From: a virus
Taxonomy: Duplodnaviria > Heunggongvirae > Uroviricota > Caudoviricetes
Length of the DNA stretch: 50,094 nucleotides
Virus record (IMG/VR): IMGVR_UViG_2529292998_000004
Coordinates: 1 to 50,094 of that record
Strand: one strand, 5' to 3'
Position numbers and translations under genes: made by a program. Shown here one piece after another: positions 27,641-28,328 of this stretch (its first letter is position 1; every line of letters begins with the position of its first letter). The notes below the pieces were generated by a model. The model was not told where the DNA came from. It made no database searches and worked only from the letters and a program-made list of their open reading frames with translations.

Positions 27641-27745
27641 GGATATTTATCAGGATTTATCGGTTTCTGAGCCCTGGATATGTTTATCAGTTCCAGCCTG
27701 TTGCCTCAGGCTGCTAACAGGTCAATACAATCATGAGGATTATTT

Positions 27746-28018
27746 ATGGACAATAACACCATTTCTCTACAGGAGTTGCTCGACAGCATTTCCAGGCTTC
27801 GGGAAGACGTGAATACCCTTACCGTCGCCTTCTCATATCTGGCATTCTCAATTCCAAGGGAACAGATGCAATCAACGCTGGCATCAATCCAGTTTGAATC
27901 ATGCAATCCCAAATGGTCTCAGGAACAACAAGACTCTTTCAGGCGGCTTGCTGTATTACTGGATGAAAAATATGCTGGTGAAATTACCATTTCGGCGGAC
28001 TCTTCAGAGAACCCGTAA
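27746..28018 (+). CDS. Hypothetical protein (90 aa) antisense to the late operon
   Basis: GAGGA RBS upstream of ATG; AT-rich; 3' end overlaps the convergent ORF at 27984..28328. Confidence 0.4.
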   Translation: MDNNTISLQELLDSISRLREDVNTLTVAFSYLAFSIPREQMQSTLASIQFESCNPKWSQEQQDSFRRLAVLLDEKYAGEITISADSSENP

Positions 28019-28328
28019 TTATTCCCGGTAGTTTTCCTCTGTAGGTTATCAACACATCCTGCGCCTCTAAAATTACGGGGCGCTTTTCCGGCGACTGCTC
28101 ATCCCCTTCACATAACCCGGCAGCAACATCCAGGAAGACCTGTCTGATGCTCCTTCTGGCTGCTGCCTCATAAAACTCCAGCGCGGCACCTTCAACACGG
28201 TCCAGCGAGATGTCCAGGTCAAAAATTTCACCGTCAAAGCGTTTTTTGTCCCGTAACGCTAAAGTTACCGTAACTTTATTCTCAAAATTGCGGATCCCTT
28301 TCACAATCAGTTTATAGTTTTGAGTCAT
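27984..28328 (-). CDS. Hypothetical protein (114 aa) between holin and endolysin
   Basis: ORF immediately downstream of the holin gene; no recognisable motif. Confidence 0.5.
   Translation of the reverse strand: MTQNYKLIVKGIRNFENKVTVTLALRDKKRFDGEIFDLDISLDRVEGAALEFYEAAARRSIRQVFLDVAAGLCEGDEQSPEKRPVILEAQDVLITYRGKLPGIITGSLKSPPKW

Follow-up and report, generated by a model that had tools for sequence, protein, structure and literature searches.

A small gene convergent with ydfR in the lysis cassette of a lambdoid Escherichia coli prophage: a probable moron-type cargo slot

The moron concept for lambdoid phages is reportedly due to Hendrix and Juhala, and one such gene is bor of phage lambda, a neighbour of the lysis genes that is encoded on the other strand from the late operon. 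A similar case is described here in a lambdoid prophage of Escherichia coli (IMG/VR record IMGVR_UViG_2529292998_000004, whose 50,094 nucleotides are called the window), where a 90-codon gene on the plus strand, orf90, lies between the holin and endolysin genes of a minus-strand lysis cassette and converges with a gene of the ydfR (DUF1327) family (Table 1). The sequence of TW14425 is 100% identical across the region. Like bor, orf90 is an extra gene of the lysis region, patchy in occurrence, low in G+C (GC) content, preceded by a promoter-like element and directed against late transcription, and the locus is probably, on balance, a moron-type cargo slot, in which an independently promoted protein-coding unit faces the late operon. 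The two cases differ in that Bor is a secreted lipoprotein, whereas the orf90 product is predicted to be soluble, acidic and helical and has no signal peptide; in that bor follows Rz, whereas orf90 lies between S and R and overlaps the 3' end of a late gene; and in that the orf90 unit, unlike bor, has a conserved structured leader that is common to unrelated cargo open reading frames (ORFs). While morons are expressed from the repressed prophage, such expression is for orf90 a presumed one.

Another example of a small gene set against an induced operon is found in the operons of the pore-forming colicins, in which the genes for toxin and lysis are separated by an immunity gene of reverse orientation, and where the immunity proteins are membrane proteins. 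The orf90 locus shares with these operons an induced gene, a small opposite-strand gene with its own (here predicted) promoter, and a lysis gene, and the long forms of YdfR differ in their C-terminal part according to the antisense gene that they face. Neither the 114-residue YdfR nor any of the small partner proteins described below showed a toxin domain, however, while the orf90 product appears soluble and either gene can be lost; as an analogy, the resemblance to colicins is one of layout only. At the RNA level, some mRNAs are shielded from RNase E by a stem-loop at the 5' terminus, the ompA leader being one example. The orf90 hairpin likewise lies near the 5' end of its putative mRNA, about 10 nt past the predicted -10 element and with a presumed start, as opposed to which its invariant UCAGCC/GGCUGAU stem and its lack of a match in Rfam set it apart from an ompA-type leader.

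The late-strand neighbour of orf90 belongs to a family of which one member has been studied experimentally. For YdfR of the K-12 prophage Qin, two-hybrid and co-purification assays were reported to show binding to the N-terminal half of RNase E, which is the catalytic one; the protein also co-purifies with RNA, and its overproduction alters few transcripts (PMC13232886). The window gene is a clear member of this family in the same position, matching PF07041 over residues 1-111 with 142.6 bits (cut-off 25) and sitting between holin and endolysin, as in the Qin order essQ-ydfR-rrrQ. In K-12, however, YdfR (103 aa) has another C-terminus, without the ITGSLKxPP tail of the window protein, its stop codon overlaps the rrrQ start (L185, 5555-5866), and there is no antisense gene. 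Because the K-12 copy has lost the conserved tail, the sole YdfR studied experimentally is an atypical, truncated member, and RNase E binding is reported for that K-12 protein.

Judged by how its alleles vary, orf90 is a genuine protein-coding gene. The frame is open in all 17 distinct alleles (from 92 loci), and among the 90-codon alleles the variable sites number 20, 11 and 46 at codon positions 1, 2 and 3, with a ratio of nonsynonymous to synonymous polymorphism (pN/pS) of 0.30, a pairwise ratio of the corresponding substitution rates (dN/dS) of 0.10 to 0.32, and conservative replacements (mean BLOSUM62 score +0.3). A preliminary description of this DNA had held that a dN/dS near 1 among relatives, together with a ribosome-binding site that is not conserved, would speak against the plus-strand ORF; the ratio lies well below 1, and the site is retained in all loci compared, Citrobacter included. 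The layout proposed there stands as well, in that a 114-aa minus-strand ORF begins directly after the holin, a 90-aa plus-strand ORF has its own ribosome-binding site, and the two converge with a 35-bp overlap in a gap of about 340 bp, the coordinates agreeing exactly and the distance from the ydfR stop to the R start being 343 bp. Relatives of 81-97 aa retain the frame at about 30% identity and keep the motifs AFSYLAF and FES-N. The window protein matches phrog_2411 over its full length (residues 1-90 of 90, E 1.5e-58), and the distant members P0066, P0067, P0075 and P0078 match that family too. A profile search of 1.84 billion protein representatives returned only about 20 clusters (at 50% identity), and when IMG/VR was scanned again with distant members, nothing but the E. 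coli type came back. In RefSeq genomes the gene is called by the Prokaryotic Genome Annotation Pipeline (PGAP) as 'hypothetical protein'. One 90-aa variant from E. coli, P0062 (source name ybl58), has its middle part in another frame, apparently through two compensating frameshifts, and may be a pseudogene or a sequencing artefact.

The orf90 product is acidic (pI 4.3, net charge -7.5) and has neither a hydrophobic or transmembrane segment (maximum 19-residue hydropathy 0.75) nor a signal peptide. No family was found for it in Pfam, NCBIfam or PADLOC, and no sequence match in the PDB. Homology and structure prediction, which the preliminary description had recommended for both proteins, thus gave a family for each (PF07041 and phrog_2411) but no significant fold match for orf90. 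Searches of the literature on DUF1327, on the accession numbers and on morons of lysis cassettes returned no paper on the plus-strand gene. The final 11 codons of orf90 face the conserved ITGSLKSPPKW of YdfR; they are variable, and the model of this end has low confidence.

Table 1. Features of the orf90/ydfR locus and its neighbours in the window (coordinates count from the first nucleotide of the window).
Feature	Position	Strand	Basis or detail
S21-type class II holin (pinholin family), 71 aa, dual-start motif MYQM	28333..28548	-	Pfam PF04971 Phage_holin_2_1, E 2.3e-32
ydfR-family gene (DUF1327), 114 aa, ATG start	27984..28328	-	Pfam PF07041; phrog_406 full length
Conserved C-terminal YdfR tail (…EKRPVILEAQDVLITYRGKLPGIITGSLKSPPKW)	27987..28091	-	Homologous to the C-terminus of the small convergent partners of orf90 relatives
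orf90, 90 aa, ATG start	27746..28018	+	ORF list; phrog_2411
3'-3' overlap of orf90 and ydfR, 35 bp	27984..28018	.	ORF coordinates
Candidate sigma-70 promoter of orf90	27656..27684	+	-35 TTTATC (27656-61), 17-nt spacer, -10 TATGTT (27679-84)
Leader hairpin CAGCCTG-TTGCCT-CAGGCTG (27694-27713) and box GCTGCTAAC	27694..27718	+	Fold, alignment
Shine-Dalgarno sequence of orf90, GAGGA, 6 nt before ATG	27735..27739	+	GAGGA/AAGGA in all E. coli alleles and Citrobacter loci
Possible weak intrinsic terminator of the orf90 transcript, GCGCC…GGCGC then TTTT	28061..28087	+	Inside the ydfR coding sequence; read from sequence
68-aa shadow ORF antisense to orf90	27706..27912	-	TTG start, no Shine-Dalgarno sequence; rejected as a gene
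SAR (signal-arrest-release) endolysin R (R21-type lysozyme), 177 aa	27107..27640	-	Pfam PF00959, E 1.3e-23
Rz	26152..26625	-	ORF list

The occurrence of orf90 is that of a gene added between neighbours that otherwise stay the same. Of 5426 complete E. coli genomes, 4349 have ydfR DNA (at 8618 places) and 1207 have DNA specific to orf90 (at 1338 places), so that the majority of ydfR copies, among them locus L004 and K-12 Qin, have no orf90. Composition also sets the gene apart, with a GC content of 45% against 53-55% in S, R and Rz; ydfR is likewise low, at 47-48%. Sliding-window identity places recombination breakpoints on both sides of the overlap. These results bear out the earlier suggestion of a cargo gene, since orf90 is present or absent among otherwise similar lysis cassettes, whereas the judgement that an antisense gene in this place is unusual does not hold, given its frequency, its annotation by PGAP, and two further antisense ORF families that fill the same slot in other phages. 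A regulatory pair, which the preliminary description offered as the other option, is not supported, as each gene is found without an intact copy of the other; in L009-L011, for instance, orf90 is intact beside a frameshifted partner. In an IMG/VR contig (L042, 2742-4207) the lysis region is rearranged or duplicated, with orf90 and a fragment of the YdfR tail followed by a second set of Rz, R, ydfR and holin.

The promoter of orf90 is inferred from conservation. About 60 nt upstream of the gene, a -10-like element has a TAnnnT that never varies, either among 11 loci of different contexts or among 8 loci of A10, and the block CCCTGGA stands conserved directly before the -10 TATGTT. In a scan with a position weight matrix (PWM), the TATGTT site scored 7.9, the second best of the region; the best score went to TTGCCT-19-TACAAT (27701-27731), which was rejected because its spacer is 19 nt, its start would fall inside the Shine-Dalgarno sequence, and its -35 is the loop of the leader hairpin. 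Inspection by eye found no LexA, sigma-54 or sigma-28 site that was consistent across loci. In L004, which is without orf90, the CCCTGGA block reads CCCACGGACAGGTT, which fits a constraint lost once orf90 was lost, and since the promoter block has decayed there the direction of change at this locus would be loss of orf90. A remnant of orf90 in L004 was considered and ruled out, the codons concerned being the antisense of the YdfR tail.

Downstream of this element lies a leader RNA whose structure is conserved by compensating changes. In the 11-locus alignment an invariant CAGC about 10 nt past the -10 opens the leader hairpin, and in the relatives an outer stem, UCAGCC/GGCUGA, encloses an inner 8-bp hairpin. 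Across seven sequences (RNAalifold, pair counts) 92% of cells are paired, against 83% in shuffles (0 of 500 as high) and at most 48% in slid controls, and in 6 of the 8 inner pairs both bases have changed. Several pairs are G-U and would read A-C in the complementary strand, which favours the plus-strand RNA. A covariance model built without L105 recovered that held-out locus at E 3e-7. The window has a shortened form, in which the inner hairpin is gone and the outer strands pair directly. Folds of single sequences, for leader and terminator alike, were no better than shuffles, and Rfam 15 held no relevant match in the window or in the loci with the long leader. The invariance of the outer stem, UCAGCC/GGCUGAU, suggests sequence-specific recognition more than simple stabilisation. 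At the other end, the candidate terminator has a 5-bp stem that is not better than shuffles (z -0.9) and persists in L004 and L009.

This predicted promoter and the leader are found at the same place before unrelated genes. In phage 86 they are followed by a 104-aa ORF (phrog_1853) and in PhiR5_1 by an 86-aa ORF (phrog_2572), neither with detectable similarity to orf90, and the YdfR proteins opposite these two ORFs have differing C-terminal extensions. Because one predicted promoter and leader stand before unrelated small ORFs in other lambdoid and Shiga toxin (Stx) phages, the expression unit would be the constant part and the cargo the exchangeable one. Homologues of orf90 also occur alone in chromosomes. 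One of 92 aa lies in the order rne-pyrC-dinI-[gene]-bssS (L100, 4001-4279, and L101, both metagenome contigs), with no leader motif and no partner, and a second adjoins a gene for a ZntA-like ATPase.

In a moron-type cargo slot, orf90 would be transcribed from its own promoter at times without late transcription, in the lysogen or at an early stage of infection, and would yield a soluble, acidic, four-helix cytoplasmic protein that acts alone. After induction, Q-antiterminated late transcription would run head-on through the orf90 unit and silence it by promoter occlusion and collision and by pairing of the fully complementary RNAs. The 5' hairpin would most likely stabilise the orf90 mRNA or be a protein-binding site. 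The 35-bp overlap would be cheap packing, and it would cost little because it is the variable end of orf90 that is used, opposite the conserved YdfR tail.

The partner gene, ydfR, belongs to the late transcript, since its start adjoins the holin stop (4 nt) and its Shine-Dalgarno sequence, GGAGAG, lies within the 3' end of the holin gene. All 314 YdfR homologues carry PF07041; their lengths run from 104 to 268 aa, with residues 1 to about 112 in common and divergence beyond, and in the long forms the C-terminal extension varies together with the antisense ORF. The window protein has no transmembrane segment (maximum 19-residue hydropathy 0.69). In the AlphaFold2 model a domain of three strands plus a helix (beta3-alpha) spans aa 4-73, with a predicted local distance difference test score (pLDDT) of 65-87, whereas the tail, aa 70-114, has a pLDDT below 50 and yet is among the most conserved parts of the family. 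L052 and L077 have another YdfR N-domain but the same pairing of this tail with orf90, whereas in L085 it is orf90 that is exchanged and the tail that is kept.

Beyond E. coli, the relatives of orf90 are again encoded opposite late genes and face, 3' end to 3' end, a small ORF that runs in the late direction; in several contexts the two overlap by 7-35 bp. The partner in Citrobacter (L094) has 238 aa and ends in KITGSLRVPMKL, and the pair stands upstream of a lambda-type holin and a CHAP endolysin; in L007 the partner has 63 aa (MILEQRVEILE…KITGSLRAPIKL). The pair lies beside IS110 in L008, between the tail genes M and L in L096-98 and L104, and next to the terminase genes in L102-103, and it is also present in L105-106. 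In searches with BLASTP-short, partner tails and the YdfR tail show significant homology among Escherichia and Citrobacter loci: a tail fragment of L009 matches YdfR 92-112 at E 1e-10 to 7e-12, the L008 partner matches the YdfR tail at E 4e-4, and the L007 partner matches that of L094 at E 4e-15. A hidden Markov model (HMM) of the 63-aa Citrobacter/Salmonella partner placed the three ORFs predicted by position in L102, L096 and L105 ahead of all others among 1811 six-frame ORF segments; individually these matches are weak (E 1e-3 to 0.18), the partner of L104 received no support from this model, and an HMM of the tail only found nothing for the distant partners. In the L094 region (3587-5236, a prophage of Citrobacter meridianamericanus) a HicA/HicB pair lies just upstream of the orf90/partner pair, together with a 263-aa protein that has pertussis-toxin S1 and Scabin-like ADP-ribosyltransferase domains; this is like the toxin-cargo region at the stx position of Stx phages.

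Several results weigh against an independently promoted cargo gene. The generic promoter scan found nothing upstream of orf90, the -35 is weak and is conserved no further than E. coli, the terminator hairpin is likewise weak, and the covariance model does not score the window's short leader. The four-helix model of the product is of moderate confidence (pLDDT 67), and a Foldseek comparison with the PDB and BFVD gave no match with E < 0.4. Of ten contexts, moreover, five to seven keep a convergent partner, the number varying with the strictness applied to partner homology, and retention of the partner in quite different operons argues that the two genes are more than neighbours. This last point belongs to the main rival, a somewhat unlikely, tentative reading in which the late-strand tail protein (…IxGSLxxPP) and the protein encoded antisense to it interact as a two-protein module, possibly one in which a protein expressed in the lysogen is neutralised or antagonised by its late partner, the convergent layout enforcing their opposite timing, a logic comparable to that of the colicin operons; the late protein might alternatively act on the orf90 leader. 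Such a module would explain why a convergent small ORF recurs in L094, L096, L102, L008, L007 and L105, always co-oriented with the late genes, and why the partner HMM ranks its three predicted ORFs at the top. A tail that is highly conserved yet modelled as disordered is what would be expected of a binding segment; that tail, besides, follows orf90 in L052 and L077 in spite of the exchanged N-domain, and the extensions of the long YdfR forms change along with the antisense ORF. Against a module stand the ydfR-only loci, which are the majority, the intact orf90 beside a frameshifted partner in L009-L011, the two solitary chromosomal homologues, and L085, where the tail is kept but orf90 is swapped. 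The homology of the distant partners is as weak as given above, absent for L104 and absent with the tail-only model, and neither PADLOC nor Pfam nor toxin-antitoxin families gave a match.

It is quite improbable that the plus transcript itself is the functional product, an RNA that damps read-through expression of R or ydfR in the lysogen by antisense pairing or transcriptional interference, with the ORF secondary. The unit is placed as such a role would require, right between ydfR and R and complementary over its whole length to the late mRNA, and in line with that role, too, are a promoter and leader more conserved than the coding cargo and common to three unrelated ORFs; the same unit also precedes other late genes, the holin gene in L094 and the tail gene L in L096 and L104. 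The purifying selection on orf90 is clearly at the protein level, however, length and Shine-Dalgarno sequence are kept at about 30% identity, and the solo chromosomal homologues face no late operon. Because selection acts on the orf90 protein, a role of the RNA would be at most an added function, with which the coding role is compatible. Very improbable is a spurious plus-strand ORF, the real constraint lying on the minus strand in the 68-aa ORF or in a non-coding spacer. The minus frame is open for 68 aa in the window and its pN/pS, 0.25, is as low as that of orf90, a similarity that arises because the frame shares its third codon positions with orf90. This ORF was nevertheless rejected as a gene, since it has internal stops in L005 and L011, has other boundaries in L007, starts with TTG with no Shine-Dalgarno sequence, and undergoes radical replacements (BLOSUM62 -0.8 as opposed to +0.3); the internal stops and the radical replacements mark it as a shadow ORF. 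In the plus frame, codon position 2 varies least, with 11 variable sites as compared with 20 at position 1, and the plus ORF is what relatives at 30% identity retain.

Known types of two-gene system were also considered. A type II toxin-antitoxin system does not fit, as the genes are convergent and not co-directional, no toxin-antitoxin domains were found in Pfam, NCBIfam or PADLOC, and each gene occurs alone. Type I systems, for which the criterion was a toxin of fewer than about 60 aa with a transmembrane helix, do not fit either, both orf90 and YdfR being longer than 60 aa and neither having a transmembrane segment. Among the defence systems of PADLOC-DB there was no match for orf90, YdfR or the partners.

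A broader proposal is unlikely, although it would join several of these observations. It is that of a portable cassette, in which the conserved promoter and covarying leader drive interchangeable antisense cargo, coupled to a tail-bearing late protein that possibly binds the cargo or the leader, so that a lysogen factor would be switched off or antagonised when the late genes fire; this would be a new prophage two-gene system found at several positions of the late operon in enterobacterial phages. Because the arrangement is common and annotations exist for both genes ('hypothetical protein' for orf90, 'YdfR family protein' for ydfR), no new prophage category is claimed for the moron-type slot. 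What seems to be undescribed is the conserved promoter with its covarying leader, the use of both by unrelated cargo, and the recurrence of a convergent pair at different positions in late operons.

The late operon around the locus runs on the minus strand and comprises, in this order, a Q-type antiterminator, a DNA methyltransferase, tRNAs, a SASA-family esterase, holin, ydfR, endolysin, Rz and terminase. The holin is labelled 'class II holin family protein' in RefSeq, and the translation of R begins with a hydrophobic SAR-like segment at its N-terminus. Between the esterase and holin genes there is a strong terminator-like hairpin with a T-run (28588-28616, minus strand), which, lying inside the late operon, is presumably read through by Q-modified polymerase. 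The spacer between R and Rz (26626-27106; 480 bp, GC 47%) holds small minus-strand ORFs, and a hypothetical protein of 43 aa is annotated in it by RefSeq (about 26683-26814). Relatives have at this junction an Ant/Rha gene (phage 86) or a ParD/ParE pair plus Rha (L009-L011), and the spacer has the appearance of a second cargo slot in the lysis cassette. An antisense iraM and three tRNA genes (Arg, Arg, Ile) lie between the methyltransferase and the esterase, at about 30.8-31.7 kb of the window (L095, 12176-13052), and a gene of the ylcI/ynfO family lies antisense near the terminase genes. As iraM and ylcI/ynfO are also antisense in the late region, one late operon accommodates several opposite-strand cargo genes.

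About one in five complete E. coli genomes, including those of sequence types ST131 and ST95, carry orf90 in a prophage lysis cassette, and the Stx-phage relatives have sister cargo at the same spot. Other cargo genes of this type would be recognisable by the conserved promoter and leader. Taken together with the reported binding of RNase E and RNA by K-12 YdfR, the leader hairpin offers a concrete and testable link from an accessory gene of the lysis cassette to RNA decay, and if orf90 is expressed in lysogens, it would be a candidate for a lysogenic-conversion, exclusion or host-modulating factor.

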